A stretch of DNA of 32,000 bases from Ferrovibrio sp. (GCF_046297595.1 NZ_JBKBHT010000005.1:145179-177178), one strand, 5' to 3'; shown: positions 418 to 31,772, numbered from the stretch's first letter. The notes: a model not told the origin generated them from the sequence alone. A program made the numbers and translations.

Positions 418-528
418 GGTGAATACGTCTCTGACAATGTCTGGAAAGAATGGCTCCCCGGGGTCGGCGAAGATGCGAACTACGAGTTCTCGATTTCCCT
501 ACTCCCAACTACGCCAGAACTGCCTAAA

Positions 529-914: not shown

Positions 915-2165
915 CTATCGAAGGCGCATGAGAGCGAGAGTGCCTGCGGCCATCAAGATGGCCGCAGCAGCGAAGCTGAAGGTGGGTGATACGGCGGTCC
1001 ACAACACACCGACGGCCGCGCTGGATACGAACTTCGCTGCGCCGTTGACCGTGCCGAGCGCCCCATAGCTCGTCGCGAGCGTATCCTGGCTGACCATCTC
1101 GGCGGTCACGGTCGATTCAAGGGCTTCCTGAACGGCGACATAGAGGCCAGCAACGAAGAATATTCCGGCAAGCATCACGACGGTGCCCGCGCCAGTGGCG
1201 AAAGCGTACGCGGTCAGCGCCGCAGTGAGTGCGCCCAAGCTATAGCCCGCGATCAGCACGCTGCGCTGGCCGTAGCGATCCGCCAACACGCCGATCGGAT
1301 AGGAAATCGCGACCTGGACGATATTGCGCCAGACATAGAGCAGGCCCGCGACCTGGGCGGCTTCGATCACGCCCATCGAAGGCGTCAGCATCTGCGTCGC
1401 GGCCAGAATGAGCAGGCTGTGTGAGAAATCGCCCATCCCGAAAATGCCGACCGCGGCAAGGTAGCGCTTGAAGCGCGCCGGCAGGCCCCGCAGCGTCGAG
1501 AACAACTTCAGTCCCGGGTTCGGCGATTGCTCGGGATCACGAACGAGCACCAGAAACGCGAGCACCGCGAGGACGCCAGGAATGAGCGTCAGCCAGAACA
1601 CCAGCCGGAAGGGATCTTCTGGCGCCTCCCATTGGAGATGCTGCGCCCAGCCGAGCAAGGCGACGCCGAGCAGCGGTCCGGCGACCGCGCCGATGGTGTC
1701 CATCGCGCGATGGAAGCCGAAGGCCCGTCCGCGCTTATCCGGCGCAATCGACTGGATGACGATGGCGTCGCGCAACGGGCCGCGCAGGCCCTTGCCGAAC
1801 CAGGACACGATGCGCCCGAGCAGGATGAGCGGCCAGCCGACGGCAAGCGCGATCAGCACCTGGCCGAGCGGGGTCAGGCCATAGCCGACCAGCACCAGCA
1901 GCTTGCGATGGCCGAATTTGTCGGCGATGTAGCCGGCGATCATCTTGGTGAAGCTCGCCACGGCGTCGGCAATGCCCTCGATGATGCCGAGCGCCGCCGC
2001 CGGCACGCCCAGAACGGCAAGAAAGCCCGGCAGGATGACCGTCGTCGTCTCGTAGCAGAAATCCCCGAGCGCGCTGGTGAGCCCCGCACCGGCCACGGTC
2101 CGGTTGAACCAGCCCTTCGGCTGGCCGTTGGGGGTTGTTGCGACGGCCTCCGTATTCGAAGTCAT
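915..2165 (-). CDS. MFS transporter (416 aa)
   Basis: 12-TM-like hydrophobic pattern. MFS loop motif GYIADKFGHRKLL and second-half motif GVLADRYGQRSVL. ATG at 2165 overlaps the upstream stop (ATGA at 2162-2165). The longer track ORF to 2381 is an Arg-rich extension. Confidence 0.85.
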   Translation of the reverse strand: MTSNTEAVATTPNGQPKGWFNRTVAGAGLTSALGDFCYETTTVILPGFLAVLGVPAAALGIIEGIADAVASFTKMIAGYIADKFGHRKLLVLVGYGLTPLGQVLIALAVGWPLILLGRIVSWFGKGLRGPLRDAIVIQSIAPDKRGRAFGFHRAMDTIGAVAGPLLGVALLGWAQHLQWEAPEDPFRLVFWLTLIPGVLAVLAFLVLVRDPEQSPNPGLKLFSTLRGLPARFKRYLAAVGIFGMGDFSHSLLILAATQMLTPSMGVIEAAQVAGLLYVWRNIVQVAISYPIGVLADRYGQRSVLIAGYSLGALTAALTAYAFATGAGTVVMLAGIFFVAGLYVAVQEALESTVTAEMVSQDTLATSYGALGTVNGAAKFVSSAAVGVLWTAVSPTFSFAAAAILMAAGTLALMRLR

Positions 2166-2971
2166 GGCGCCACCTCGAAGGTTGCGACAATGGGATAGTG
2201 ATCCGAAGCCATATTCGTCGCAGGCGCGCGGACGACCTCGTAGCTGGCAGCGCTTGCCGCCAAGGCCTTTGTTGCCAGCACATAGTCGCAGCGCATCGCC
2301 GCGAACTCCGTGCCTACGAACCCGGCCGTCGGCACGGTGGGCGTGATCGCCTTGTCGAGGACATGGCCGACATCGACCCACCCGGCGGCCTCCAGATGGG
2401 CGAGCACGCTGCGGTCGGCCGCCTTCAGATCGTCGGCGAGATAACGGGTGCGATGGTGCGCCGGCAGCGTGTCGAACCCCGCCGGCTCGGGATCGTGCGG
2501 CGACGCGGAATTGAAGTCGCCGGTGAGAAGCGCGAGGGTATCCGGCGCGGCCTGGACCGCGAGGTGTGCGGCCTCGCGCCGACGGATTGCCGGGCCATTT
2601 GGGCAGAGATGGGCGCTAATCAGCGTCAAGGGCCGCTCGTTGCCCCGCAGCTTCACTTTGAGCGTGGCCAGCGTGTGGTGGAAATTGGCGCTGTCCGCTT
2701 CGAAGGAGATCGGCTTGAGCGGTTCGCGAATGAAGATCGCGACGTTCTGCCCGGTGCGCGGCGCGACTGCGAGGAAGCCGCGCATGCCGATCCTAGCTTC
2801 AAGCGCGTGCAAGAGTGCGCCGCCTGCGGCATCGAACCCTTTTGCCTCCTGCATCAGGAAGACGTCGGGCTTGATGCCGGCGATCAACTTGATCTGCGCC
2901 GCGGCCCGGCGATCATCACCGCCGTCGCGGCCGGCAAAAAGCGTGTTGTAGGTCAGGATGGTTAGCGTCAC
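2162..2971 (-). CDS. endonuclease/exonuclease/phosphatase (EEP) family protein
   Basis: 269 aa. N-terminal ILTYN...D, LMQE, LISAHL, GDFN and C-terminal SDHYPI motifs of the EEP fold. GTG start with AGGGGG 6 nt upstream. Confidence 0.85.
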   Translation of the reverse strand: MTLTILTYNTLFAGRDGGDDRRAAAQIKLIAGIKPDVFLMQEAKGFDAAGGALLHALEARIGMRGFLAVAPRTGQNVAIFIREPLKPISFEADSANFHHTLATLKVKLRGNERPLTLISAHLCPNGPAIRRREAAHLAVQAAPDTLALLTGDFNSASPHDPEPAGFDTLPAHHRTRYLADDLKAADRSVLAHLEAAGWVDVGHVLDKAITPTVPTAGFVGTEFAAMRCDYVLATKALAASAASYEVVRAPATNMASDHYPIVATFEVAP

Positions 2972-2983
2972 TGAGCGCCCCCT

Positions 2984-3526
2984 TCATTTGTTCTCGTCAT
3001 GGGCGTCGAAGACGCGTTGCGCATATGTATCGAGCAGACCTTCGCAGGCTTTCAGCCGCTCAACCGACTCAGCCGCCAGGGGTGCGCCGTAGAAGTCGAG
3101 TTTCCGGATCTTCTCGATCCAGCCCTTGAGTTTCTTCAGATCGACGTCGTTCTCTTCCAGCTCGGCATAGGTGAAGTGCTCCGCTGCCGTTTCCTTGGCG
3201 ATTTCTTTTTCGAAGTCGTCACACTTGTCAATGAACTCGCGGTAGGCCTCGTCCCTGTCGGCCTTGAAGCGACCGACGACCTTTTCTTCCTGGCTACGGT
3301 CGAGCGCGACCGTCTCCAGAAGCACCGATTCACCGGCGACTTCGGCGACGTCGTTCTCCAGCATTTTGAGGCGCCGCACATGATCGTCCGTCTTCGGGAG
3401 CAAGCAGACGCCGTTCTGCAGATAGACGGCGCCCATGCCTTTCAGCCGCCGCCAGATTGCGACGCGCTTGGAAGCCGGCTCGGGCGGAACTTTGTAGGTG
3501 AGGAGGAGCCATGAGTGAGATGCCAT
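2984..3526 (-). CDS. ChrB N-terminal-domain-like protein (chromate-resistance regulator family), 180 aa
   Basis: N-terminus SWLLLTYKVPPEPASKRVAIWRRLKGMGAVYLQNGVCLLP is the ChrB_N signature. The rest is a charged helical region. It heads the EEP-MFS genes. Confidence 0.65.
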   Translation of the reverse strand: MASHSWLLLTYKVPPEPASKRVAIWRRLKGMGAVYLQNGVCLLPKTDDHVRRLKMLENDVAEVAGESVLLETVALDRSQEEKVVGRFKADRDEAYREFIDKCDDFEKEIAKETAAEHFTYAELEENDVDLKKLKGWIEKIRKLDFYGAPLAAESVERLKACEGLLDTYAQRVFDAHDENK

Positions 3527-3532
3527 GTCTCA

Positions 3533-3561
3533 AAAATATTGTAACGGCCGTAACAAGTCAA
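3533..3561 (-). promoter_or_regulatory. sigma70-like promoter for the ChrB-N-like gene, predicted leaderless; near-palindrome in the spacer
   Basis: Minus strand: TTGACT (3561-3556), 17-nt spacer, TATTTT (3538-3533), then 6 nt (TGAGAC) to ATG 3526 with no SD. Spacer holds TTGTAACGG/CCGTAACAA (3539-3556) with core ACGGCCGT. Local AT-rich pocket. Confidence 0.4.
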
Positions 3562-3617
3562 TCGATACTAAACAGCGTTGCCGCTGGTGCCTAAGTCGGT
3601 CTCGTCCCGTTCTATAG

Positions 3618-4409
3618 CTAGGCGTGCCGCCAGACTTTGACCGCCGAGACCAGCAGGATCGCCGCCAGCGCCGGCAGCAAGATCGCGGCTGGCACGATGC
3701 CGAGCAGCAGGCCGCCTACGAGCGATCCGGCAATCGAACCCAACGCCATGATGAGGATGAAGCGACGGTTGCGGCCGAGCACTGCGAAGCTGCTGTCACG
3801 GCTGTAGCGGGTGAAGCCAACGATCATGGTGGGCAAGCTGACCGCTAGCGACAGGCTGCCGGCAAGCTTGATGTCAGCGCCGAACAGGAGCACCAGCGTC
3901 GGGATCAGCATCTCGCCACCCGCCACGCCGAGCAGGGAAGCGACCACGCCGATGACGAACCCCGCGGCGACGCCTGCGATGGCCTGCGCGATCCCGCCCA
4001 TCAGCGGGACGCCGGAGCCATCCGCGTCGTGTCCGAACAGCAGCACGATCGCGATGCCGACAAGCATCAAGGCGATGACGCGATAAAGCACATGGGCCTT
4101 CATGCGAACCGCCCAGCCGGCCCCGAGCCAGGCGCCCAGCAGGCTGCCAACGAGAAGATTGACGATGACGGACCAGTGATCGGCAACGACGGCGAACGGC
4201 ACCGTACCGGCGCGGAACGGCAGGGCTGAGGCCACGACCACCAGGCTCATCGCCTTGTTGAGGATGATTGCCTCCAACGCGGCGAACCGGAATAGCCCGA
4301 TCAGCACCGGCAGGCGGAATTCCGCGCCGCCGAGGCCGATCAGGCCGCCGAGCGTTCCGATCATGGCACCCCAGCCGAAGGCCATCGCAGGGCGGTCGAC
4401 CTGCGTCAT
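3618..4409 (-). CDS. TSUP-family anion permease (sulfite exporter TauE/SafE family)
   Basis: 263 aa, 8 hydrophobic segments. Duplicated G-rich motifs GGLIGLGGAEFRLPVL and LLGVAGGEMLIPTLV are typical of TauE/SafE. ATG 4409 overlaps the modC stop (ATGA); an alternative ATG is at 4385. Confidence 0.85.
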   Translation of the reverse strand: MTQVDRPAMAFGWGAMIGTLGGLIGLGGAEFRLPVLIGLFRFAALEAIILNKAMSLVVVASALPFRAGTVPFAVVADHWSVIVNLLVGSLLGAWLGAGWAVRMKAHVLYRVIALMLVGIAIVLLFGHDADGSGVPLMGGIAQAIAGVAAGFVIGVVASLLGVAGGEMLIPTLVLLFGADIKLAGSLSLAVSLPTMIVGFTRYSRDSSFAVLGRNRRFILIMALGSIAGSLVGGLLLGIVPAAILLPALAAILLVSAVKVWRHA

Positions 4410-5515
4410 TGCGCTGCCTCGTTGTGGGTCGGGGCACGGGCGACGTGATCGCGGGCGACCGACATCGACTTGACGATGGCGTGGACGTCATCGCCGGGTT
4501 TGAGGCCCAGTTGCTCGACGGCACGGCGCGTGATGCGGGCGAGGATCTCACCATCGCCCACCTGGACGTGGACGATCACGCCCGGCCCTGTGCCGGGAAC
4601 GATGCCGGCGACTTTCCCCGCGAGGATGTTCTGCGCGGAAAGGCCCTCCGGCCGCTTCCGCGCCAAAATGACCTCATGCGCCATGATGCGCACGCGCACC
4701 CGCGTGCCAGGTGCGCTCTCGATGGTGGGCAGGAACAGCGGACCCGTGGCGGCGTCGAGCCGAGTCAGCCCGTCATCCAAATGCTCGACAATGATCGCCG
4801 GCAACATAGCGGCGACCTCGCGGATGCCCATGGCACGCAGGGCTTCGGGATCGGCCATCACCTCCGCCGTCGTGCCTTCACGCACCACGCGCCCATTCTC
4901 GATCACAACCATCCGGTCGGCCAGCAACTGAGCTTCGTTCATGTCGTGGGTGACGAGCACCACCGGCATTTTGAGATGGGCGCGCAAAGCGATGATCTCA
5001 TCGTACAGCCGCTCGCGCGTCGCTCGGTCGACGGCCGAGAACGGCTCGTCCAGCAAAAGCGCCTGCGGGCGGCGGGCCAGCGCGCGCGCTACCGCGACGC
5101 GCTGCTGTTGGCCGCCCGAAAGCTGGCTTGGCTTGCGATTGGCTAGCCCTGGCATGTTCACGAGGGCGAGAAGCCGCTCGGCCTCGGCCCGCGGGTTCGG
5201 CGCTCCCCGGTCCATCGCCGCGGTCACGTTCTGCGCCGCCGTCATATGCGGAAACAGCGCATAGTTCTGGAACACAATGCCGACATGCCGCCTGTGGGGC
5301 GGCAGGTTCACGCCGGCAGTCGTGTCGAGCCACACCTCGCCATCCACCGCCACCCGCGCCGTCTCCGGCCGCCAGAGCCCCGCGATGGTGCGCAAAAGCG
5401 TCGTCTTGCCCGAGCCGGAATGACCGACCAGCGCGAGCAGCTCACCCGGTTCGGCGCGGAATGAAGCCTCGAGCGGAATGGGGGCTGCCGCCCGTGCCAT
5501 CACTTCCAGCGCCAT
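4406..5515 (-). CDS. modC: molybdate ABC transporter ATP-binding protein with C-terminal TOBE/Mop-like domain
   Basis: Walker A GHSGSGKTT, signature LSGGQQQRVAVARAL, Walker B LLLDEPFSAVD, then a roughly 130-aa TOBE-like tail. Sits in modA-modB-modC order. Confidence 0.9.
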   Translation of the reverse strand: MALEVMARAAAPIPLEASFRAEPGELLALVGHSGSGKTTLLRTIAGLWRPETARVAVDGEVWLDTTAGVNLPPHRRHVGIVFQNYALFPHMTAAQNVTAAMDRGAPNPRAEAERLLALVNMPGLANRKPSQLSGGQQQRVAVARALARRPQALLLDEPFSAVDRATRERLYDEIIALRAHLKMPVVLVTHDMNEAQLLADRMVVIENGRVVREGTTAEVMADPEALRAMGIREVAAMLPAIIVEHLDDGLTRLDAATGPLFLPTIESAPGTRVRVRIMAHEVILARKRPEGLSAQNILAGKVAGIVPGTGPGVIVHVQVGDGEILARITRRAVEQLGLKPGDDVHAIVKSMSVARDHVARAPTHNEAAQ

Positions 5516-6183
5516 CAGGACAGTCTCCGTCCCACGCGCGCCGACAGCATGTAGGTCGCCGCGATGGTGAAGAGTGAAATCGCCACGAGGGTCGCCGACA
5601 TGATGCCGGCGCCGGCCATGTCGAAGCCCTGCACCCGGTCGTAGATTGAGATGGCGATCGTCTTGGTTTCGCCAGGGATCGAGCCGCCCATCATCAGGAT
5701 AATGCCGAACTCACCCAGCGTATGGGCGAAGGTCAGAACCATGGCCGTCATCACGCCAGGCCAGGCCAGCGGTAACTCGACCCGCCAGACGCCGCGCAAC
5801 GGCGACATGCCGCAGCAGGCGGCCGCTTCGCGCACCTCCACCGGAACCGCCTCAAATCCCCGTTGTGCCGGCTGAATAGCGAAGGACAGATTGAAGATCA
5901 CCGAGGCTACCAGCAGTCCCTCGAACGTGAAGACCAGTTGGTGGCCGAAGGCCGCCTGCCAGAAGGCGCCGATGGGCGAGTTCCGCCCGAAAGCCAGCAG
6001 GAGGTAGAAGCCGAAGACCGTCGGCGGCAGCACCAGCGGCAGCATCACCACGGCCTCGACCAGCCCCTTGCCTCGGAACTGGCGGTAGGCCAGCCAACGG
6101 CCGGCCACAATGGAGACCGGCAAGAGGATCGCCACCGTCCAACCGGCGAGCCTCAGGGACAGGGAGAGGGCGGTCCAATCCAA
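5515..6183 (-). CDS. modB: molybdate ABC transporter permease
   Basis: 222 aa, 5-6 TM. EAA-type loop EAAACCGMSPLRGVWRVELPLA. TTG start 4 nt after the modA stop. Stop overlaps the modC ATG by 1 nt. Confidence 0.88.
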   Translation of the reverse strand: MDWTALSLSLRLAGWTVAILLPVSIVAGRWLAYRQFRGKGLVEAVVMLPLVLPPTVFGFYLLLAFGRNSPIGAFWQAAFGHQLVFTFEGLLVASVIFNLSFAIQPAQRGFEAVPVEVREAAACCGMSPLRGVWRVELPLAWPGVMTAMVLTFAHTLGEFGIILMMGGSIPGETKTIAISIYDRVQGFDMAGAGIMSATLVAISLFTIAATYMLSARVGRRLS

Positions 6184-6187
6184 AGGG

Positions 6188-7021
6188 TCAGCCCTCAGCC
6201 GGCAGCACGAAGCCGAATTTCTTCATGATCTCGCGGGCTTTCGGCGTCTTCATATAGGCGTAGAACTCCTCGGCGACGGGACCGGCGTTCTTCAGCAGCG
6301 CCATGCGCTGCAATAGCGGTTCGTGCCAGTCATGGGGGATCAGCGCGAATTGACCCTGCGAGCGCACTTCCGGCGCCAGCGCCAGCGAATAGGCGATGAT
6401 CCCGCCCTGCGCATTGCCCGAGAGCGCGAACTGGGCCGCTTGGCTGACGTTCTCGCCGAGAACTAGATGCGGCTGCACCTTATCCCACAGGCCGCGATGC
6501 TTGAGCGCCTCTTCGGCGCGCAGACCGTAGGGCGCGTGCTCGGGGTTGGCGATGGCGAAGCGGGTGATCCGGCCCGCTGCCAGTTGGGCTGCGAGATCGT
6601 CCATCGCCTCATCGGCCTTCAGCATCGAGCCGTGCGGCACCATCAGCACGATGCGGCCCTCGGCATAGAGATCGCCCGCGTCCCGGGTGAAGCCTTCCTT
6701 GTAAAGATCGGCGATGAATTTCTGATCGGCGGCCATGAAGACTTGAAAGGGTGCGCCCTGGCGGATCTGGGTGGCGAAGTTGCCCGTGGAGCCAAACGAG
6801 AGCTTCACCTCCTTGCCGGTGTCCGCCTTGAAGGCCGAGGCGAGTTCGGTCACGGCGAATTTCAGGTCGGCCGCGGCGGCGATGACGGGCACGTCCGCCT
6901 GCTGGGCATCCGCGCCGGTCATCTGAATTGCGAGGGCCGCGATCGCGGCTCCAGCCCCGAGGCCAAGCGTGAGAAGAGCACGTCGTGTCCAGGCATGAGC
7001 CATCGCCGAATGGGTCATCAT
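6188..7021 (-). CDS. modA: molybdate ABC transporter periplasmic substrate-binding protein
   Basis: 277 aa. Signal peptide with twin-Arg-like TRRALLTLGLGAGAA. ModA-type motifs FGSTGNFATQI and VFMAADQKF. GGAGA SD 6 nt upstream of the ATG. Confidence 0.88.
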   Translation of the reverse strand: MMTHSAMAHAWTRRALLTLGLGAGAAIAALAIQMTGADAQQADVPVIAAAADLKFAVTELASAFKADTGKEVKLSFGSTGNFATQIRQGAPFQVFMAADQKFIADLYKEGFTRDAGDLYAEGRIVLMVPHGSMLKADEAMDDLAAQLAAGRITRFAIANPEHAPYGLRAEEALKHRGLWDKVQPHLVLGENVSQAAQFALSGNAQGGIIAYSLALAPEVRSQGQFALIPHDWHEPLLQRMALLKNAGPVAEEFYAYMKTPKAREIMKKFGFVLPAEG

Positions 7022-7034
7022 GAGCGTCTCCGTT

Positions 7035-7060
7035 CCGATGTAGTCATTTGACTATATCGG
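7035..7060. promoter_or_regulatory. Mo-box-like palindrome (candidate ModE operator) directly upstream of the modA SD
   Basis: Minus strand reads CCGATATAGTCA-AA-TGACTACATCGG, 12-bp arms with one mismatch. It resembles the CG..TATA...TACAT..CG ModE operator pattern. Ends 3 nt from the SD (7027-7031). Confidence 0.45.
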
Positions 7061-7098
7061 GCGCGACCCAGCCTGCCAAGGCTGTACGCCTTGAACAC

Positions 7099-7470
7099 TC
7101 AGCCTTCGGGGGACTCGTCGACGATAAGGTCGGAAAAGGCGTCGAGATCGCGCGCCGCCGCTTCGGACGCCTGATTCTCGATCGACCGGTAAAGTTCCAG
7201 CACCTTCTCGCCTATCGCCGTCAGATGCGCGCCGCCACGCGAGCTGCCGCCCTTGCTGGCCACCACTAGCGGTTCGCGGAAGCACCGGTTCATGGTGTCG
7301 ATCAGGTACCACGCCTTCTTGTAACTCATGCCCATCGAGCGCCCTGCGGCCGAGATCGATCCGGTCTCGGCGATGGCTGCCAGAAGATCGGCTTTGCCAG
7401 GGCCGATGGCGATCGACCGGCCCAGGACGAGCCGGAAACGCAGACGTGGTTGAAGTGATTCACTTGCCAT
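7099..7470 (-). CDS. ModE-like winged-helix regulator, N-terminal DNA-binding domain only (123 aa, no Mop domains)
   Basis: ...IAIGPGKADLLAAIAETGSISAAGRSMGMSYKKAWYLIDTMN... is the ModE/LysR-type HTH signature. ATG at 7470. The 456-aa track ORF upstream of it is a shadow frame over the neighbouring permease gene. Confidence 0.8.
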   Translation of the reverse strand: MASESLQPRLRFRLVLGRSIAIGPGKADLLAAIAETGSISAAGRSMGMSYKKAWYLIDTMNRCFREPLVVASKGGSSRGGAHLTAIGEKVLELYRSIENQASEAAARDLDAFSDLIVDESPEG

Positions 7471-7529
7471 GGTGCCTGATCTTAGCCCGCCCGTGCCGAC
7501 GGACGAAGCCGTCTCAGTCGTTGTCTGTC

Positions 7530-8501
7530 TCAGGAGGCCGAGGTGGACAGAGGAAGCAGCTTGCGCGGCACGAGCCACAGAAAGCCGACCATTCCGAACA
7601 GCTCCACGAGCGACTGAAACACGATGACAATTACCGCCAGCTCCCAGGCCGCGGGTAGGGCGAGCGCGAAAGGCAGCACGACGAAGGAATTGCGCGTCGC
7701 CACACTGAAGACCAGCGTGCGCGCCTGCGGCACCGGCAGTGAGAATAGACGCGCCACGAAGATACCGATCGCCGCGGCGCCGACGAGAAACAGCAGGAAG
7801 GCGAGGAGCACCTGCCCGAGAACCGGCAGCGAACCGGCAACCGCCTCCACCTGTGATCCGGCAATCAGGAAGACTACCAGGGCCAGCAGCGGAACGGGGA
7901 ACCAAGCGAGCCGCTCGACGACGGCGCTCCGCGCTCCGTTCCGTTCCGACCAGACCTCGGTCAGGAAGGCCAGGGCAAGCGGCAGCAGGATCAGCACGAC
8001 GAATACCGCCGCGATGCGATCGGCTGAAAGAATCTCGGCAAAGCTCTCCCCCATGAAAATCCAGAGATAGAGCGGCAGCAGCGCGATCTGTAGCAGCAGA
8101 TTGACTGGCGTCACCGCGATCGCTCGCCGCGTGTCGCCCCGCGCCAAGTGTGTGAAGGTAATGAACCAGTCGGTACAGGGCACGAGAAGGACGAGCAGCA
8201 CACCGAGTCTCACCGCCGGCTGATCGGGCACGACTAGCAGCAGCGCCCAGACAAGCAACGGGACGAGGATGAAGTTGGAAAGCAGGATTGCCGCCATGAA
8301 TCGGCCATCGCGGAAGGCCTCGGGCAGATGATTCAGCGGGACCTGCGTGAACGTAACGTAGAGAAGCGCGGCCAGGCTCGGCCACAACAGCACTTCCAGG
8401 ACACCGCCCAAATCCGGTGCTGCCATTCCAAAAATCAGGCCAATCGTGATTGCCACGAGATAGATCCATGCCTGAAGTCTTTCGATCGTCTCGCGCGTCA
8501 T
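7530..8501 (-). CDS. ACR3 / bile-acid:Na+ symporter superfamily permease (arsenic-resistance-protein-like)
   Basis: 323 aa, about 10 TM. LVLLVPCTDWFITFT resembles the ACR3 Cys-containing helix. Exact substrate not inferable. Confidence 0.6.
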   Translation of the reverse strand: MTRETIERLQAWIYLVAITIGLIFGMAAPDLGGVLEVLLWPSLAALLYVTFTQVPLNHLPEAFRDGRFMAAILLSNFILVPLLVWALLLVVPDQPAVRLGVLLVLLVPCTDWFITFTHLARGDTRRAIAVTPVNLLLQIALLPLYLWIFMGESFAEILSADRIAAVFVVLILLPLALAFLTEVWSERNGARSAVVERLAWFPVPLLALVVFLIAGSQVEAVAGSLPVLGQVLLAFLLFLVGAAAIGIFVARLFSLPVPQARTLVFSVATRNSFVVLPFALALPAAWELAVIVIVFQSLVELFGMVGFLWLVPRKLLPLSTSAS

Positions 8502-8901
8502 ATCGATGGCCGGTCTCCTTTTGCGTTCACGCTTGTAACATGACTAGACGCATGTCCGACTGATCTTGGCGGATGCGGATGCGGCCCGAAAGCTTGAGGT
8601 ACGGGAGGTCCGCCAGATTGTGTCGCCAAGCCCGCCGAACAGCTTGGGGGCGCTGGACACCAAGTTCCGTGAAGCGGTCAAGCACGTCGGCCGACAAATA
8701 TGTCCATTTCGTATGGAATCTTTGCAAACGCGTCTCAATAGCAATTTTATGTAGGGCTGATTACAGTCCTACCAGCAGTTCTGCCGATCCGAGTCGGTTG
8801 CGCTCCCGGACAGTCAAAATTCCGGCGCGCAATTCCCATATTGGTTGAGGCGGTTGCCGCTCGGCCGGGCACATAAATTTCGGGAGTGCCATGACAGGAG
8901 G

Positions 8902-9850
8902 TTGCCGGAATCACTGGAGGAGTTCCGATCGCTGGAAGCGCATATCGAACTGAGACACCTGCGCTATGTGGTCGCAGCTGCACACTATGGCAGTTTTCGG
9001 CGGGCGGCTGAGGCGCTTGGGGGCAAGCAATCGACCCTGAGCCGCTGCATTTCGCAATTGGAAGAGCGTCTGGGCGTCGTGTTGTTCGAACGAACCAGCG
9101 GTGGCGTTCGGCCGACTACGGCTGGCGTCGAGATATTGCGGACATCCCGGCATCTCGTCGAAACGGTCGATCATATGGCCGCGACCGCCAAGGACATAGG
9201 CAGAGGCGAGGCCGGCCGCCTCACGGTCGGGTTCTACACCTCGCTGTCGGCCGGGAACCTGCGGGCCAGCCTGATCGAGTATGCATCGCGGTTCCCCAAG
9301 GTCGAAATCCAGACATATGAAGGCGCACGCGCATGCCTGTTCGCCGGCGTCGACGCTGGCCGGCTTGATGTCGCCATCGTGACGGGCGATCCGATCTCTC
9401 GCGGGGGGGAAGGTCATGGGGCTCTGGAGCGAGCGCATCATGGTCGCGCTGCCCGAAGGTCATCGATTGGCCGGCAACAACATCGTCTATTGGACCGATC
9501 TGAAGGACGAGACCTTCCTTTTCAGCCAGCGCGATCCCGGGCCGGAGATCCAGGATATCTTGCTGGCGAAGCTCGCCGCGCCGGGCGAACGGCCCAAGGT
9601 CATCAGTCACGATGTCAGCCGCGAGAACATCAAGAGCCTCGTGGGAGCAGGCTTCGGCGTCAGCCTGATGTGCGAAGCCTGCATCGGGGCTTCTTATACA
9701 GGCGTCGTCTGCCGCGAGGCGCGGGACGGCAATGGTCCGAGCCGGATCAACTACGCAGCCTATTGGCAGGGTGATAACGACAATCCGGCACTGGCGGGTT
9801 TCATCAACCTGCTGCAAGAGCGCTATCCCTCCTTGCCCGCGGGCGACTGA
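8902..9850 (+). pseudogene. LysR-family transcriptional regulator interrupted by a +1 frameshift in a G7 run
   Basis: HTH part ELRHLRYVVAAAHYGSFRRAAEALGGKQSTLSRCISQLEERLGVVLFER is in one frame. The co-inducer domain (K)VMGLWSERIMVALPEGHRLA... continues in the +1 frame from about 9410. Removing one G restores ...DPISRGGKVMGLW.... Start unresolved: TTG 8902, CTG 8914 or CTG 8932, with no in-frame ATG. Confidence 0.8.
9403..9409 (+). repeat. G7 homopolymer at the lysR frame break
   Basis: gc-ggggggg-a. G6 would give an intact reading frame. Confidence 0.9.
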
Positions 9851-10065
9851 CGCGGTCGCCGGGCCTTCGCGAAGCCGCGATCGGTGGCCATGAAGCGCTC
9901 CACCATGGGGACGATCAGTTTGGCCGGGTCGCTTACTGGATGGCCGGTCTCGCGGGCCAGGATTTCCGCGTAAGCGACCAGATCGCGATGAACGGTCGCC
10001 GGAAATTCGATCACGAGCTTGACCGGCTTGTCGTCGGCAACGGCCCCGAGCTTCAGCTTCGCCAT
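9823..10065 (-). CDS. DUF2274 domain protein (conserved last gene of trb operons)
   Basis: 80 aa. MAKLKLGAVADDKPVKL..EFPA.VHRDLVAYAEILARETG...DPAKLI.PM.ERFMATDRGFAKARR is the DUF2274 pattern. Starts 1 nt after the trbI stop. Confidence 0.85.
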   Translation of the reverse strand: MAKLKLGAVADDKPVKLVIEFPATVHRDLVAYAEILARETGHPVSDPAKLIVPMVERFMATDRGFAKARRPRQSPAGKEG

Positions 10066-24930: not shown

Positions 24931-25266
24931 TCAGTCCCGCTCGCCGCGCTTCGGCGGACGGTTCCAGTGGAGCCCCCAGGTCGTCTTGTCGTCGCCGGAC
25001 TGGAACAGATTGGCGCGCACTGGCTGCGCGAAGACGGGATCGTCGAGGAGCAGCGAGACGTACTCGCCAGCCTTCTCGCCGGTCCGCTTCCAGCCGGCGC
25101 CGACCTCGGGGCCATCTTCGTCGCCGAGATGGACGCGGTAGTCCGGCGCGTTCTCGGCGTCGGAAGGTTCGGCCGGAAAGAGAGAAAGCGCGGCGTCGAG
25201 GGTGAGCGTGCGGACGTGTCCGGAATAGCCGGACTTCGTGCGGGTGAATTGACCGATCTGTGGCAT
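24931..25266 (-). CDS. DUF736 domain protein (copy 1)
   Basis: 111 aa from ATG 25266. MPQIGQF.....G..G.V.TL...APDYRV...E.GAGW.......EYVSLLLDDPVF..P..ANLF pattern shared with the two copies at 30.5-31.2 kb. Confidence 0.85.
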   Translation of the reverse strand: MPQIGQFTRTKSGYSGHVRTLTLDAALSLFPAEPSDAENAPDYRVHLGDEDGPEVGAGWKRTGEKAGEYVSLLLDDPVFAQPVRANLFQSGDDKTTWGLHWNRPPKRGERD

Positions 25267-25313
25267 GGGAAAGTTCCTTCTGCTGCATGTGGGGGAGAGG
25301 TTCGGCGCGCCCC

Positions 25314-25859
25314 TCAACGTGTTTGGGCGCGCCATTCGAAGTGGCCGCTGTCGTCTTCGTCGGTCCACACCGGCATCGCGCGGCCAATGATCGAGCTGGT
25401 GGGAATGGGACCGAAGTAGCGGCCGTCGAGGCTGTCACGGACGGACCAGTTCATGAGGAAAATCTCGCCGTCCGCGACGCGCCGGCAGCCCTGCCAGACG
25501 GGCAGATCACGGCCGAGGCGGTCACGCCGCAGCGCCTCTCCCATCGCGATGCCATCGACGGTGATGCGAGCGCCGGTTCGGCAGACCTGCTGCCCCGGAA
25601 GGCCGGCAACGCGCTTCATGAGCGGGACGCCGCGCGGCAGGTAGCCGCGCTCGGCCAGGAACGTGGCGAGCGGTTCGGGAGCGGCCACGGCGACCAGGTC
25701 GGTCACGTCGAGCCGGGATGATCGATCGATAGAATAGAGCCCGATCGGCGTGCTGGCCGAGGCGTTCCAAATCAGCTTCGGCGCAATGTGGATGAACGAC
25801 AGGCCGCCGATCAGCATCACGGCGAAATACGTCGTCATGCCGTAACCGAAGCGGGTCAT
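25314..25859 (-). CDS. traF: S26-family signal peptidase, TraF type (pilin maturation)
   Basis: 181 aa from ATG 25859 (ATGA overlap with DUF2840). N-terminal TM, NASASTPIGLY Ser motif, MKRVAGLPG Lys motif. Confidence 0.85.
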   Translation of the reverse strand: MTRFGYGMTTYFAVMLIGGLSFIHIAPKLIWNASASTPIGLYSIDRSSRLDVTDLVAVAAPEPLATFLAERGYLPRGVPLMKRVAGLPGQQVCRTGARITVDGIAMGEALRRDRLGRDLPVWQGCRRVADGEIFLMNWSVRDSLDGRYFGPIPTSSIIGRAMPVWTDEDDSGHFEWRAQTR

Positions 25860-26377: not shown

Positions 26378-26628
26378 GATGGGTCTCCTTCGGTCGGGGG
26401 AAATTCGCGCGTGAGCAGGTCGCGCAGCATGTCGGCGACCGTGACGCCGCGCCGGAATGCCGCGATCTTGATGCGCCCGCGCAATTCGGAGGTGACGTCG
26501 ATGGTCAATCGCGCCGAGAACACGGCGGCGTCCGGGCCGCGCGCAGGCGGCGTCCCTGACGACTTGATCCAGTGTTCAGCGTCGCCGGGCCGGGCGGCGA
26601 AGCCGCGTTTCTGAGACGGCCCGGTCAT
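26374..26628 (-). CDS. small ribbon-helix-helix protein, probable ParG-type centromere-binding partner of ParA
   Basis: 84 aa from ATG 26628 (ATGA overlap with the parA stop). C-terminal RHH pattern ARLTIDVTSELRGRIKIAAFRRGVTVADMLRDLL. Confidence 0.6.
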   Translation of the reverse strand: MTGPSQKRGFAARPGDAEHWIKSSGTPPARGPDAAVFSARLTIDVTSELRGRIKIAAFRRGVTVADMLRDLLTREFPPTEGDPS

Positions 26629-27262
26629 AATCCGAGCCTCCCGACCTCGGCGCAAAGTGCGGCGATCTCGCGCGCGGCCGGGCTGTCGTCGTCGACCTCC
26701 GACACGAGGCGTCCGGACTGCGCCGTATCGGCGAAGGCGACGCGCTGGCCGATGGTGGATGCCAGCACCGGCGGATCGTGATCGGCGAGCGTCTCGGCTG
26801 TTTCGCGGGCGATGACGGTTCGCGCACCGCATCGGTTCAGCACGAAGCGGGCCGTGAGCTGCGGACGATAGATGCGTGCCTCACTGAGCAGTGCCAGCAT
26901 CTCGGCCGAGGCCAGCCGTCGAATGGCGATGGCTGCACCGGGATCAGGATGAGATCGGCGGCGAGCAATGCGGAACGCATCAGCCCGGCGACGCGGGGCG
27001 GCCCGTCGATGACGATGTGATCGGCGTCGCGCGCCAGCTCCGGCGCTTCGCGATGGAGCGTATCGCGCGCCAGGCCGACGACGCCGAACAGGCGCGGAAG
27101 GCGCTCGCGTGCCCTTTGTTGCGACCAGTCGAGCGCCGAGCCTTGCGGGTCGGCGTCGATCACGGTGACGCGCTGACCGCGTCTCGCCCATTCGCCGGCA
27201 AGGTGCAGCGCCAGTGTCGTCTTGCCGACGCCGCCCTTCTGATTGAGGAACGCGACGATCAT
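26625..27262 (-). pseudogene. parA: ParA-family partition ATPase with a 1-nt deletion frameshift
   Basis: N-part (27262 to about 26912) has the deviant Walker A NQKGGVGKTT and ...LILIPVQPSPFDGW. Homology continues in another frame as (A)SAEMLALLSEARIYRPQLTARFVLNRC...TIGQRVAFADTAQSGRLV. TGG-CCT at 26914-26909 would be TGG-GCC-TCG if one G (top-strand C) were restored. Confidence 0.85.
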
Positions 27263-27473: not shown

Positions 27474-28355
27474 TCACAGCTTATCCCCAGAGCGAGTGTT
27501 GGAACGGCGACGTCGCGGCATGCCGAGCGGCGCCGGATCGGTCGGTACGAAGGAAAGGCGTTCGGGGCCGCTGGCCGGCTGCTCGATGGTCAGCCGGTAA
27601 CCGGGCAGCGCCTGGCGGCGGACGATGTCGCGCAGGTCGTAGGCGAAGTGCTTGAGCGGCGAGAGCGAGCCGGACTTGGCGTGGAGGTGGATGAAATCGA
27701 AGCTCCAGCCGAACTCCTGGCGGCCGCCATGCTTGCGCACGAGCCGGTAGAGCCAGCGTTCGAGCCCGCCCGTGAGATCGAAGTAGGCGCGGTCGATCGT
27801 CAGTACGAGCGCGTCGTCGAGGACCGCGGCGTAGAACCAGTCGGGTACGATCAGCTCGAGGCCAAGGGGCCGTCCTCGGCTGTCGGCTTTCTCCTTCCAC
27901 TCGTTGATCCAGGAGAAGCGGTGCATCCGTCGCTCGGTGGGCTGGCGGATCGATGTGGCGATCGTGGTTGATTGTAGGCGGTCGAGCGCGGCCTTGAGGC
28001 GGTCGTAGTCGCGTAGCGACACGCCGCGGCCGATGAAGTTCAGGATCTCATACGGAGTGGTCCCCATGAGCCGCGACGGGCGTAGGCCGGCGTCGCGCGC
28101 TTCGACGATCTGGGAGGCTGCCCAGATCAGCACGTCCGCGTCCCAGATGGTCGCCATGCCATGCTCGGGGACGGCTTCGACGCGGATGACGATCGAGCCC
28201 GCCTTGAAGTCGATCGGCGCCAGGCGCTTCGATTTGGCGAGCGAGAAGAACGGATAGGCCATGAGGTCCTGCGCATCTCGCGGCGCGAGGTCGCCGGGCA
28301 GCGCTCGGAAGAGATCGAGCTGCTCGCGTTCGCTACTGTGATGGCGGGACGACAT
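27474..28355 (-). CDS. repA: replication initiator protein A (RPA family)
   Basis: 293 aa. N-terminal EQLDLFRALPGDLAPRDAQDLMAYPFFSLAKSKRLAPIDF is the RPA-family signature. Confidence 0.88.
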   Translation of the reverse strand: MSSRHHSSEREQLDLFRALPGDLAPRDAQDLMAYPFFSLAKSKRLAPIDFKAGSIVIRVEAVPEHGMATIWDADVLIWAASQIVEARDAGLRPSRLMGTTPYEILNFIGRGVSLRDYDRLKAALDRLQSTTIATSIRQPTERRMHRFSWINEWKEKADSRGRPLGLELIVPDWFYAAVLDDALVLTIDRAYFDLTGGLERWLYRLVRKHGGRQEFGWSFDFIHLHAKSGSLSPLKHFAYDLRDIVRRQALPGYRLTIEQPASGPERLSFVPTDPAPLGMPRRRRSNTRSGDKL

Positions 28356-28366
28356 ACCGGCACGTC

Positions 28367-28648
28367 TCAGCGCGCGTGGCGGCCGGATTGGACCGGCGCC
28401 GTCGGTTCATGGCGCTTGGCGGGAAGAACGGCGCCGCGGGGATCCGACGTGGATGTGACGGCGCCCCGATCGGCCCAGGCCTGCAGGTCGTCGATGGCGT
28501 AGACGACACGGCCGCCGAGCTTGCGATAGGCCGGGCCAGTCCCATAGGTCCGGTGCTTTTCCAGCGTGCGGCCGGAGAGACCTAGAAATCGGGCGGCTTC
28601 AGGAGTGCGTAGAAAGCGCGGCGGCAAGCCGGCGAGGTTGGCGGACAT
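28367..28648 (-). CDS. excisionase/AlpA-type helix-turn-helix protein (HTH_17); candidate recombination directionality factor or regulator
   Basis: 93 aa. FLRTPEAARFLGLSGRTLEKHRTYGTGPAYRKLGGRVVYAIDDLQAWA is the MerR-like excisionase-family HTH. Stop lies 11 nt before the repA ATG. Confidence 0.8.
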   Translation of the reverse strand: MSANLAGLPPRFLRTPEAARFLGLSGRTLEKHRTYGTGPAYRKLGGRVVYAIDDLQAWADRGAVTSTSDPRGAVLPAKRHEPTAPVQSGRHAR

Positions 28649-28782
28649 GATCGGGCCTCCGGGGTGTTCGTTGAGGCCGCTGGCGATCAGCGGCGGGCGA
28701 AGGCCACGGTGGCGAAGAGCTGCCGTCTGGGGGGATGGTGAAGATTGAGGGGGCTATTTCGCACCCCCCTGGATAGGCTCCG

Positions 28783-29551
28783 TCAGCGCCGTCTGCGCCG
28801 ACGCAACAGGTCACGGTAGCCGCCATCGACCATGGCGAGGCCATCGCGAACGAGGCGAATGGTGGAATCACGGAGCGCCGATGTTTTCCAGGAGTCGGAG
28901 GCAACGCGGGACACGCCGAACATCACCTCGGCGATCTCCCGGTAGGTTGCGCGGCAAGCGCGGCCGTCGAAGGCCCGCAGCATGTGACGGAGGCGCTGCC
29001 GGCGCTGAAGCGTCACGCGCAGATCGGCGGGCGGAGGCGGCGCTTGGAGCCCGCCCCAAATGCGCGAGATGGCCTCGATCCGGTCTGGTGCATCAGTGTC
29101 CAGCGGGACGACCGCGGCTAGTGGCTGGTCGGGACCAATGCCGCCGAGCAACACGACATGGACTGCGTCGGCGCCGTCGCCATGAATTGCGTGGAGTTCG
29201 TGCGCGCTGCGGCGCGTTACGTTCGGGTCAAGCGCGGGCAGTGGTGCGCCGGCGGAGCCAAGGGATGGCGACGCGATCAGCAGAACCTTTCCAAGGTCGG
29301 CCTCCGTCGTCCAGTGAACGGGTTCCTCGATGGCGCTGTGGCTTGGGTGGGCAGGGAAATTGCAACCCCCAGCGCAGGCGGAACGACGCGGTCGCCTGCT
29401 CTGGGTCATCCATCTCTTTCAATGCTTTTGCATAGTCGCGCTGGTAGTCGACATTGCGGCGCAAGCACTCCCACGCCAGGTCGGAAATGCCGAGATCGTC
29501 GAAATAGTCGTAGCTGGTCGAAGCTCGCCACTGCGATGGGTCCGGCGCCAT
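28783..29551 (-). CDS. FseA-like transfer/excision activator (DUF6499 N-domain + DUF2285 C-domain) requiring a +1 frameshift; 255-aa fusion predicted
   Basis: Frame a runs from ATG 29551 (AGGAGG 6 nt upstream) to the Phe codon 29359-29357. The +1 frame runs from CCU 29355-29353 to TGA 28785-28783. See the first finding. Confidence 0.7.
29351..29362 (-). promoter_or_regulatory. candidate +1 slippery site CAA-UUU-CCC-UGC
   Basis: This is where protein-like sequence switches from frame a to frame b. UUU to UUC re-pairing is possible. Confidence 0.55.
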
Positions 29552-29579
29552 CGATTACCTCCTGGCTCACATGGTTCAT

Positions 29580-29596
29580 GTATCCGGGCCGGATAC
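29580..29596. promoter_or_regulatory. palindrome GTATCCGG-G-CCGGATAC upstream of the FseA-like gene
   Basis: Perfect 8-bp arms with a 1-nt centre, 29-45 bp upstream of ATG 29551. The loop is too short for an RNA hairpin, so a dimeric-protein operator is more likely. Confidence 0.4.
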
Positions 29597-29671
29597 GATT
29601 GCCGGTTGAGCTGGATCAGGGAAGACCCGGAAAAAGCGCCGCGTGATCGCTGCGGTGCATCGCGGACCCGT

Positions 29672-29935
29672 TCAGTGATGGCCGCGCCGAAGCAGGTCGC
29701 GATAACCGTGTTCGGTCATCCATCGGGCGCGCAGGAGATGGCATTCATGGATGTGCCGGGCGCGCTCGGGATCATCTCTGGGATCAATGCCGAACAGAAT
29801 GGTAACCACTTCGCACCAGTCCGCTCCCTCGGCATCGGCATCGAGCAGGCGAACGTAGAGCTTCAAATGCTTGATGTCGTAGTCGGTCAGCGACGCGCCT
29901 CGGGGCGGTTCGTCAAGAAAATCCGGCGCGGTCAC
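29672..29935 (-). CDS. single-domain DUF2285 protein (QseM-like candidate anti-activator)
   Basis: 87 aa, GTG start with GGGGGA 6 nt upstream. It aligns by eye with the C-terminus of the FseA-like protein: L..LD....GA...E(I/V)....FG ... GYRDLLRR. Confidence 0.7.
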   Translation of the reverse strand: MTAPDFLDEPPRGASLTDYDIKHLKLYVRLLDADAEGADWCEVVTILFGIDPRDDPERARHIHECHLLRARWMTEHGYRDLLRRGHH

Positions 29936-30067
29936 GATGGGTCCCCCGACACATCAATGGCGACAGCCATTCGATTCCGAGTCGATTTTATCGAAGTTTT
30001 GAATTGTCGTAAGCTGCGCGAGAAGACATCGCGTGATGCAGCGTAGACATCGCTGCGGGTCGTGCAA

Positions 30068-30301
30068 TCAATCTTCGTCGGCGCTCTGCCGCTCGGTCCG
30101 TTCGAAAAACGCGACCGGATCGATTTCAAGCACGATCGCCAGCTTTTCCAGCATATCGATCGTCGCGGCGTGCTGTTCCCGCTCAAGCATGCCGACATAG
30201 TTGCGATTGATCTCGGCACGATCGGCAAGTTCCTCCTGCGACAAGCCCTTGGCGTGTCTCAGTCGACGCAAATTTCTGGCGACAAGCTCCCGCAATCTCA
30301 T
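30068..30301 (-). CDS. XRE-family HTH regulator (QseC / C-protein-like)
   Basis: 77 aa. LRRLRHAKGLSQEELADRAEINRNYVGMLEREQHAATIDMLEKLAIVLEIDP is a canonical Cro/C1 HTH. Confidence 0.85.
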   Translation of the reverse strand: MRLRELVARNLRRLRHAKGLSQEELADRAEINRNYVGMLEREQHAATIDMLEKLAIVLEIDPVAFFERTERQSADED

Positions 30302-30336
30302 GCGGAGAGGTCGCCGTTTCCCCTAATATACTGCCA

Positions 30337-30350
30337 CCTAGTAAACTAGG
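30337..30350. promoter_or_regulatory. palindrome CCTAGT-AA-ACTAGG upstream of the XRE gene (candidate auto-operator)
   Basis: Perfect 6-bp arms, 36-49 bp upstream of ATG 30301. A TATATT -10-like hexamer (minus strand, 30330-30325) follows. No SD lies close to the ATG. Confidence 0.4.
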
Positions 30351-30441
30351 GATTCGTACATGAGAAAAGGCGCGGTGTCATTTTTCCGGGATGATCGGGA
30401 GTTTCCGGCCGGATCGCGGACTGGATTCCCACAGGCGCGAT

Positions 30442-30467
30442 GCCCCGCCCGGCTGTCCGGGCGGGGC
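30442..30467 (-). terminator. GC-rich hairpin after DUF736 copy 2
   Basis: GCCCCGCCCGG-CTGT-CCGGGCGGGGC, an 11-bp perfect stem, 12 nt after the stop at 30480. Poor U tract. Confidence 0.55.
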
Positions 30468-30479
30468 GTTGCTGGCGGC

Positions 30480-30806
30480 TCAGTCGCCGTTGCGGCGGCT
30501 GGGGCGAGACCAGATGAGGCTGAAGCCTTCGCCTTCCTCGTCGTCGAAGAGGTTGGCGTAGATCGGAGCGTTGAAGCTCGGGTCGTCCAGCTTGAGGCCG
30601 AGATAATCGCGGCCCTCGTTGGAGCGCTTGGACCAGGCGGCGCCGATCTCGGCTCGGCCGACGAAGACGCGGTGGCTGGGAGCGTTCTCGCCGGTGGAGC
30701 GGGCGTCGGGGACGATGCGGACGTTCTTGGTCTGGACGCTGAGGGTGACGATTTCGCCGGTGAACTCGTTCGAGCCGGTCTTCTTGAAGGTGCCGATGGT
30801 CGCCAT
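30480..30806 (-). CDS. DUF736 domain protein (copy 2)
   Basis: 108 aa. MATIGTFKKTGSNEFTGEIVTL...APSHRV...EIGAAWSKRS.EGRDYLGLKLDDPSFNAPIYANLF...LIWSR. AAGGAGA SD. Confidence 0.88.
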   Translation of the reverse strand: MATIGTFKKTGSNEFTGEIVTLSVQTKNVRIVPDARSTGENAPSHRVFVGRAEIGAAWSKRSNEGRDYLGLKLDDPSFNAPIYANLFDDEEGEGFSLIWSRPSRRNGD

Positions 30807-30931: not shown

Positions 30932-31231
30932 TCAGCGCGACCAGATGAGCTTGTGTTCGCTCTGATCGCCCTGGATCAGGGTCGCGTAGATCGGCGCCGG
31001 GAAGGAGGGATCATCGATCTTGACCGAGAGGTATTCGGTGCCCGATTCCTTGGCCGCCTTGCTCCAGGCGGCACCCAGTTCGACGCCGTTGGCGGTGACC
31101 CGGAAGTCGGGCGCACGTTCGCTGTCCTTGGCGACGGGCTTGATGACCGCCTTGACGTTGATGTTGAGGGTGCGGATCGTGCCGGCGAAGGTGCCGTCGT
31201 CGCTGCGGGTAAAGGTGCCGATCTGAGCCAT
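30932..31231 (-). CDS. DUF736 domain protein (copy 3)
   Basis: 99 aa from ATG 31231 (AGGAGA SD). MAQIGTFTRSDDGTFAGTIRTL...APDFRV...ELGAAWSKAAKESGTEYLSVKIDDPSFPAPIYATL...LIWSR. The upstream part of the 193-aa track ORF is not protein-like. Confidence 0.88.
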   Translation of the reverse strand: MAQIGTFTRSDDGTFAGTIRTLNINVKAVIKPVAKDSERAPDFRVTANGVELGAAWSKAAKESGTEYLSVKIDDPSFPAPIYATLIQGDQSEHKLIWSR

Positions 31232-31772
31232 GTCGTATCTCCTGACTTTTGCCGAAGCCGCCCGATGCGGCCTCGTGGCTGTCGAGAGGCGACGGGTCGG
31301 ACGGCTGCACCCAGCGGGCCGCAGCGTGAGCGAAGGACGGCGAAAGCCGGGCTTGTTGGCTCGCGAGGAATGCGGCGCAGCCGCAGGGGAAGAAGGTCGG
31401 CGAAGCCGTTGCAGGCATAGGCCGTCCCGGCGCCAGATCAGCCCCGAACAGAGGCCATCCGGCGGCTTCACCGGCACCGTCAGCCGGAACGACAATGGTC
31501 GGTACGCCTTCACAAATCAGCGGCGCGCCTTGCGTCGGTCTGCTTGAACTGACGAACTGAGGTCCGAGCCCGTCTCCTGATCCGCGCCTATGCACGTATC
31601 AACCTCACATCCGGTCGCCGCCCGTGCGGTCGAACCAATATCCCGCTTGCGGCGGCAAGGGCTCAGGAGGGCGATTCCAGACTCGATGACGGCATTGTTG
31701 CCAGGCCGCAGATACGGTCGCCCACCTCGATCCGCAGGGCTGATCAAGCCCCGACGGAACTCAAAATCTCCA

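Follow-up and report, generated by a model that had tools for sequence, protein, structure and literature searches.

A probable +1 frameshift joins the two halves of an FseA-family activator gene within a Ferrovibrio conjugative-element backbone

The stretch analyzed here (the window) comprises 32,000 nucleotides of Ferrovibrio sp. (GCF_046297595.1 NZ_JBKBHT010000005.1:145179-177178), and coordinates are window positions throughout. On its minus strand, inside a conjugative-element backbone (RepA/ParA/TraF/relaxase/TraG/Trb), two overlapping open reading frames (ORFs) encode a DUF6499 domain and a DUF2285 domain. On comparative sequence evidence, the locus is very probably a single transcriptional activator gene of the FseA family, fseA, written in two overlapping frames that are joined by a +1 slip at UUU-C. 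FseA is the product of msi172-msi171 on the integrative and conjugative element (ICE) ICEMlSymR7A of Mesorhizobium japonicum/loti (hereafter R7A), where it is made by a +1 frameshift (Ramsay et al. 2015, reviewed in PMC4755241; Jowsey et al. 2023, PMC10359603). The parts of the gene are:

29558..29563, minus strand: Shine-Dalgarno (SD) sequence AGGAGG, read from the sequence, six bases 5' of the ORF-a ATG.
29357..29551, minus strand: fseA 5' segment in frame 0, codons 1-65 ending in the putative slip codon UUU, encoding DUF6499 (PF20109).
29354..29371, minus strand: putative recoding site UGGGGG-UUGCAA-UUU-CCC, with an SD-like G run (coding W-G), a 6-nt spacer and UUU followed by C; CCC (29354..29356 within the site) is the next frame-0 codon after UUU.
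28783..29355, minus strand: fseA 3' segment in frame +1, stop included (PF10074).
29228..29356, minus strand: frame-0 tail of ORF-a, 42 codons plus stop, Arg/Pro-rich with a net charge of +8, the end of the non-shifted 107-aa product.

As read from the sequence, ORF-a runs from 29551 to 29228 (107 aa). ORF-b runs from 29409 to 28783 (208 aa) in the +1 frame relative to ORF-a and has its own ATG at 29409; both frames are open together only between about nt 133 and nt 321 of ORF-a. Residues 7-66 of ORF-a match the complete Pfam profile PF20109 (formerly DUF6499, profile positions 1-60, E = 9.7e-24), and residues 100-203 of ORF-b match PF10074, formerly DUF2285 and now named RovC_DNA-bd (E = 4.5e-35). 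The junction context is CGC UGG GGG UUG CAA UUU CCC UGC, with CAA-UUU-CCC-UGC at 29362..29351. Skipping base 29356 yields a 255-aa fusion, ...RWGLQF|PAHPSH..., in which Pfam finds both domains and in which the junction-spanning peptide is WGLQFPAHPSHSAIEEPVHWTTEADLGK, the frame-0 counterpart being WGLQFPCPPKPQR. An earlier note on this DNA had described a DUF6499 ORF behind a perfect AGGAGG that runs out into an Arg/Pro-rich tail, a DUF2285 protein in the +1 frame, and the meeting of the two halves at CAA UUU CCC UGC to form a 255-aa product; each of these features was recovered at the coordinates given there.

The split layout is shared with close relatives. When one genome per species was scanned, 11 related loci with 75-96% protein identity came up, in Ferrovibrio, Ancylobacter, Xanthobacter, Qipengyuania, Bauldia, Caulobacter, Phenylobacterium, Methylobacterium, a Hyphomicrobiaceae member and Sphingomonas. 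All 11 pass from frame N to frame N+1 at the identical place, across several alphaproteobacterial families, and all 11 carry CGCUGGGGGUUGC(A/G)AUUUCCC at the junction; the 769-nt alignment of these loci with the window (12 sequences) contains no indel anywhere. The exact 107-aa ORF-a, frame-0 tail included, was found in 50 blocks of a public assembly collection, and each of the 10 contigs fetched with it has the same junction followed by a separately called DUF2285 ORF. Among them are the complete Xanthobacter dioxanivorans chromosome CP063362.1 and several metagenomes assembled from short reads. The 90% cluster of ORF-a has 79 members, and the 15 that are listed all have a length of 107 aa. 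Among 21 close loci the recoding site is constant save for one CAA/CGA change in the 6-nt spacer (L011).

Farther out, 13 of 14 plasmid homologues (28-57% identity) combine UGGGGN-N6-UUUC with the +1 switch; the remaining one, from Pseudomonas aeruginosa, is a clean single ORF and lacks UUU. The slippery motif is kept in 34 of the 35 related loci examined, a count that leaves aside three further single-ORF loci fetched just for comparison of the junction. In a database of 5.8 billion proteins, relatives with at least 51% identity are all called as DUF2285-only proteins, meaning that they are split, and full-length two-domain proteins appear only at 50% identity or below. The window has a single match to the pattern TGGGGN7TTTC, and it coincides with the junction; chance alone would give 0.08. 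The homologue on the Rhodopseudomonas sp. BAL398 plasmid pBAL398.2 (1501-2262; L023) was rejected as a single-ORF relative, tblastn alone having suggested it: it carries the canonical +1 site, its middle domain holds a further frame disruption that leaves no frame open from end to end, and it is likely a pseudogene or a long-read assembly error.

The earlier note had proposed to check whether the two-ORF layout and the slippery motif recur in related elements, and they do so in 11/11 genome loci, 10/10 contigs and 13/14 plasmid homologues. Among the outcomes that it took to speak against a frameshift were CC in place of CCC, and homologues that are uniformly single ORFs and lack a conserved slippery motif. 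A contig that is 100% identical to the window across 2066 nt (L037) reads CCC, not CC, and homologues down to about 51% identity are all two-ORF. These comparisons indicate that the fseA split is not a sequencing error.

The frame under selective constraint also changes along the gene. Among the 12 close sequences, variable sites are distributed over the three frame-0 codon positions as 14/10/35 up to nt 198 (the end of UUU) and as 128/56/37 after it, so that the wobble position shifts from frame 0 to frame +1 (chi-square p = 1.7e-10), with 35 of the 59 variable sites before the junction at frame-0 third positions and 128 of the 221 after it at third positions of the +1 frame. The +1 pattern also holds along the frame-0 tail of ORF-a (nt 199-321; 33/14/10), which is without protein-coding constraint of its own. 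Immediately after UUU, relatives read CCCUGC, CCCCGC or CCCGGC, which in frame +1 are synonymous codons for Pro (CCU/CCC/CCG) and in frame 0 would be Cys, Arg or Gly. These patterns indicate that both halves are under purifying selection, each in its own frame.

When the fusion is aligned with 20 single-ORF relatives, the proteins are collinear and gap-free at the junction (RWGLQF-PAHPSHSAIEEPVHW versus RWGLQF-LADPRNSALDEHVYW). At this point the single-ORF relatives read UGG GGU UAC GAU UUC GCC GCC or UGG GGU UUG CAG UUU CUU, which is the split form minus one base. The helix motif of the N-terminal domain is AWECLRRN here; in the same alignment L30, R31, R32 and N33 never vary, and conservation of A26, W27 and E28 is 90% or higher. 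An AlphaFold2 model of the fusion, built from the alignment with single-ORF relatives, has a predicted local distance difference test score (pLDDT) of 65.6 and a predicted template modeling score (pTM) of 0.62. The N-terminal domain (pLDDT 75-89) and the helical C-terminal domain (84-93) are predicted with confidence; the middle domain (residues 83-157) scores 34-46, and at this low confidence no conclusion is drawn about it or about interdomain contacts. The sole significant match of the model to a solved structure is RovC (6XZ5, E = 5e-5 over 251 columns), whose sequence match to the fusion is weak and falls into two segments.

From homology and this comparative evidence we infer frameshifting at the locus. 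Translation would initiate at the ATG at 29551 behind the strong SD sequence, and the DUF6499 domain would be made in frame 0. Most ribosomes would remain in that frame and stop after a meaningless tail of 42 residues, which would yield the 107-aa product. A minority would slip at UGG-GGG-UUG-CAA-UUU-C, where the rare codon UUU would occupy the P site and tRNA-Phe (anticodon GAA) may re-pair on UUC, aided by the SD-like UGGGGG six bases 5'; these ribosomes would then complete the 255-aa activator in frame +1, adding the middle domain and the DUF2285 domain that binds DNA. UUU is uncommon in this DNA (19 UUU versus 169 UUC among the Phe codons of 18 window genes), and fseA itself, with five Phe codons, uses UUU just once, at the putative slip site. 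In R7A, tRNA-Phe slips on UUUC with an efficiency of 4-13% and a G-rich region lies 5' of the site, and the native gene pair gives only 0.8% of the promoter activation obtained with the fused gene (PMC4755241). In a curated set of 4709 homologues, about 61% have the split, which falls at a conserved +1 site with UGGGGG coding for WGL; the site is conserved throughout alpha-, beta- and gammaproteobacteria, and annotation pipelines mis-annotate the split homologues (PMC10359603). The domain order, the +1 ORFs, UUU_C and UGGGGG (WGL) found here fit both of these accounts, which bears out the suggestion of the earlier note that the gene is of the FseA (msi172/msi171) type.

The neighboring genes resemble those of an FseA circuit. 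In transcriptional order, the minus strand encodes a DUF736 protein, an XRE helix-turn-helix (HTH) protein, an 87-aa DUF2285-only protein, FseA, an HTH_17 protein and RepA (RPA). These are followed by ParA (broken), a ribbon-helix-helix (RHH) protein, DUF2840, an S26 peptidase (TraF-like), DUF736, an SLT transglycosylase, a DUF3363 relaxase, the coupling protein TraG, a CopG-type RHH protein, TrbB and further Trb proteins. The order DUF736 - HTH - QseM-like - DUF6499 - DUF2285 - HTH_17 - RepA recurs in plasmid and genome relatives. The features that flank fseA are:

29672..29935, minus strand: QseM-like antiactivator gene, 87 aa, DUF2285 only, directly 5' of fseA and co-directional with it (PDB 7UQT).
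30068..30301, minus strand: XRE-family HTH gene, 77 aa, in the QseC/RihR position (PF01381 HTH_3, E = 1.1e-12; synteny conserved).
28367..28648, minus strand: RdfS-like excisionase (recombination directionality factor) gene, 93 aa, HTH_17, the presumed FseA target operon.
28736..28764, minus strand: candidate FseA box GTGCGAA-N15-TTCACCA, beginning at -116 from the rdfS-like ATG.

The 87-aa protein matches the nuclear magnetic resonance structure of QseM (7UQT) over residues 7-84 (E = 1.8e-17) and PF10074 (E = 1.7e-6). It is acidic, with a net charge of -5 versus +10 across the DUF2285 region of FseA (residues 147-255), and a contrast of the same kind has been described between QseM and FseA (PMC10359603). 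The RdfS-like protein matches RdfS (PDB 8DGL, E = 1.2e-10) and PF12728 (E = 1.6e-8). In distant loci, 7-nt inverted repeats lie 5' of the rdfS-like gene at -115 to -118 with spacers of 14-16 bp, and their arms covary between loci (TGTCGAA/TTCGACA, TGGCGAA/TTCGCCA, GGGCGAT/TTCGCCC and GGTCGTT/AACGACC). This agrees with the published FseA box, which consists of inverted hexamers with a 15-16 bp spacer (PMC10359603).

By analogy with ICEMlSymR7A, the full-length protein would dimerise, bind an inverted repeat 5' of the rdfS-like gene and turn on excision and transfer genes, and the 87-aa acidic QseM-like protein would bind the DUF6499 domain and thereby block the activator. On the same analogy, a frameshift of low efficiency would hold activator dosage low and damp transcriptional noise.

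Two side observations concern these neighbors. The XRE gene is co-directional with the qseM-like gene and fseA in the window clade and divergent in several distant relatives (L018, L021, L024, L025, L028), and such changes of orientation fit the frequent rearrangement of top-level regulators reported in PMC8627217. In the leader of the rdfS-like gene, about 30-45 nt 5' of its ATG, lies a conserved inverted repeat able to form a hairpin, GCCGCTG-N5-CAGCGGC (28676-28694, minus strand). Distant loci keep its arms in altered form, one example being GCCGCC...GGCGGC. The repeat may serve as an operator or as an RNA element; autorepression by RdfS is known in R7A (PMC11963761).

Compared with R7A, the window has the same protein architecture (DUF6499 with an AWE(F/C)LRRN helix at the N-terminus, DUF2285 at the C-terminus and a variable domain between them) and the same overlapping +1 ORFs with a UUU_C slip codon after a UGGGGG that codes the conserved WGL. 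Genes for a QseM-type antiactivator and an XRE regulator are close by in both, the presumed target is again an RdfS gene, and the conjugation backbone is likewise of the TraF/relaxase/TraG/Trb kind. It differs in several respects. The qseM-like gene lies directly 5' of fseA and is co-directional, whereas R7A qseM is convergent with the traI2-msi172-msi171 operon (PMC4755241); the rdfS-like gene follows immediately 3' of fseA and is itself followed by repA-parA; there are no traR/traI quorum-sensing genes beside the module; and the fourth position of the helix motif is Cys, not Phe, as in RovC.

The arrangement also resembles the RihF1b/RihF1a-RihF2-RihR module of ICEAc in Azorhizobium caulinodans, which has a DUF6499 ORF, a DUF2285 ORF, a small DUF2285 protein and an XRE regulator. 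There, deletion of the pair cuts transfer about 1000-fold and neither half complements alone (PMC9601964), which is what a fusion made by programmed ribosomal frameshifting (PRF) predicts. Unlike what we propose for fseA, PRF is denied for rihF1b/rihF1a by the authors of that study. In a different A. caulinodans draft genome (GCA_036600855.1, L040), ORF-a is at least 90% identical to that of the window and the same split layout is present at the level of gene calls.

Yersinia RovC (PDB 6XZ5), an activator of a type VI secretion system (T6SS), likewise has a DUF6499-like N-terminus packed on a DUF2285 HTH; unlike FseA, it is encoded by a single ORF without a frameshift, acts on a T6SS and not on conjugation, and is only 15% identical. 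In the release factor 2 gene prfB, a P-site tRNA slips by +1 onto an overlapping cognate codon, with an SD-like GGGGG located 5' at a 3-nt spacer. The site in fseA would share with it the +1 slip of a P-site tRNA, has an upstream SD-like element as well, and differs in having no stop codon in the A site, no autoregulation through release-factor abundance and an unrelated protein product.

Several observations weigh against reading the locus as a frameshifted fseA with an R7A-type circuit. Identity to the Mesorhizobium homologues is about 39%, as measured against plasmid copies and not the R7A gene itself. PRF has been stated to be absent from the A. caulinodans module, each ORF there having its own start and stop (PMC9601964). 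UUU_C occurs in frame 10 times in other genes of the window, so the tetranucleotide alone would be insufficient for a slip. The SD-like run lies 6 nt from the slip codon, unlike the 3 nt of prfB. A likelihood change-point analysis of the wobble phase supports a switch and places it only within nt 117-204, with its maximum at 138-144; this imprecision is due to a variable linker. The switch is pinned to F|P by the end of the Pfam match at residue 66 and by the comparison with aligned single-ORF relatives. In the window clade, the sequence of the candidate FseA box is highly conserved but is a poor inverted repeat (4/7 complementary), a degeneracy that also sets it apart from R7A. No TraR/TraI (LuxR/LuxI-type) genes adjoin the module in the window, which was not scanned exhaustively, or in the fetched relatives, and the upstream input would thus differ from that in R7A. 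Many FseA/QseM elements lack quorum-sensing genes (PMC4755241).

There is also no conserved stimulatory RNA structure 3' of the slip site. Such a structure was considered and rejected, as the RNAalifold consensus of 16 loci reaches only -4.3 kcal/mol with almost no covariation and the window folds worse than its shuffles (z = +1.7); none is reported for the FseA frameshift in the literature cited here. An Rfam scan of 28300-30400 gave no match at E up to 1, and a scan of 28300-30500 for sigma-70 promoters and intrinsic terminators found nothing.

Four other explanations of the split have been weighed. It might be an artefact or a recent inactivation, through an extra base in the CCC/UUU run (a sequencing or assembly error) or as part of a decaying pseudogene. 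The window does offer a precedent, since two other genes are broken at homopolymers, as the earlier note had pointed out. parA (27262..26625, minus strand) is split by the loss of one base in a G run near 26912-26914, with GG in the window, and a LysR gene (8845..9850, plus strand) is split near a G7 run at 9403-9409, one frame holding HTH_1 plus the initial third of the substrate domain and another holding the remainder of that domain. Homopolymer indels thus do occur in this sequence. The parA indel, however, is private to the window: all 10 of the 11 related genome loci that cover the region have GGG and an intact 212-aa ParA, and the break may be either an assembly error or a real loss of partitioning in this copy. 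The +1 layout of fseA, by contrast, is common to relatives in each set compared, both halves appear to be selected in their own frames, and the close alignment is free of indels, so that the comparative data effectively exclude an error or a pseudogene. Transcriptional slippage, in which RNA polymerase would drop a base in the T3 or C3 run, has a probability close to nil. Nothing specific speaks for it, although the junction does hold short homopolymers. Programmed transcriptional slippage usually needs runs of 7 nt or more, far above the 3 nt present here, and the conserved SD-like element and the rare P-site codon favor the ribosome. The event in R7A has been assigned to the ribosome as well (PMC4755241).

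The two ORFs might instead encode two separate proteins that assemble non-covalently, ORF-b being translated from its own start at the ATG at 29409 or farther 3'. That ATG, the annotation of two coding sequences (CDSs) by the Prokaryotic Genome Annotation Pipeline (PGAP), and the A. caulinodans module, for which such an arrangement has been asserted and in which the halves have their own starts and stops and complementation requires both together (PMC9601964), are in keeping with this possibility, which we consider improbable. The complementation result is equally compatible with a PRF fusion. Depending on the locus, the annotated start of ORF-b lies anywhere between 95 nt ahead of the slip site and more than 190 nt beyond it, and none is conserved; conservation in the +1 frame sets in directly behind UUU rather than at an ATG; the fusion is collinear with single-ORF relatives; and the invariance of the slip motif would be without reason. 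For R7A, activity of the fused gene far exceeds that of the native pair, and the fusion protein has been detected (PMC4755241). If the halves are indeed joined by a ribosomal slip, the slip could also be made one codon 3' of UUU_C, by tRNA-Pro on CCC_U. The protein from the two slips is identical in the window clade, which reads UUU-CCC-U/C/G and hence Phe-Pro in both frames, with ...QFPAH... either way, and CCC_N is a known +1-prone site in bacteria. Slippage by tRNA-Pro is nonetheless very unlikely to be the mechanism, as the codon after UUU is often CGC (CGU in L014) in loci L014, L016, L018, L020-L022 and L024; CGC and CGU cannot re-pair at +1, which argues that UUU_C is the element conserved in the family. 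A +1 slip of tRNA-Phe at UUU_C thus remains the preferred reading.

Since the +1 site has already been published as family-wide, the finding is not new in kind: the locus is a further instance of the published recoding event, and it confirms rather than extends what is known. Its practical meaning lies partly in annotation. PGAP calls the regulator as two small, unrelated proteins, a 'DUF6499 domain-containing protein' and a 'DUF2285 domain-containing protein', which makes the master activator of a widespread alphaproteobacterial family of conjugative elements invisible in automated annotation. The contrast between the private parA indel and the conserved fseA frameshift offers a clean way to tell programmed frameshifts from errors. 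The window clade also shows the FseA/QseM/RdfS core without adjacent quorum-sensing genes.

A further idea, speculative and in our estimate rather unlikely, is that the non-shifted 107-aa DUF6499 product acts as a decoy that titrates the QseM-like antiactivator, that the shift ratio sets the threshold of a self-contained bistable transfer switch, and that the 'no PRF' account of RihF1 is a misread recoding. If so, the abundant 107-aa product would not be waste, in a lineage without quorum sensing in which the qseM-like gene lies directly 5' of fseA on the same strand.

At the 5' side of the module, similarity to all related loci ends at about 30855, just 5' of the first DUF736 gene, and this boundary may be a recombination junction. 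A second DUF736 paralogue lies within 30932-31513, at a position without counterpart in the relatives, and a third copy is located at 24931-25368. Beyond trbI, window positions 1-10000 carry cargo genes for a molybdate-type ABC transporter (periplasmic binding protein, permease and ATPase), a ModE-like/LysR HTH protein, a TauE-like membrane protein, a ChrB_N protein, an endonuclease/exonuclease/phosphatase protein and a major facilitator superfamily (MFS) transporter. Of these, HTH_1, ChrB_N and Exo_endo_phos were assigned from Pfam, and the ABC transporter, TauE-like protein and MFS transporter were named by reading their translations.

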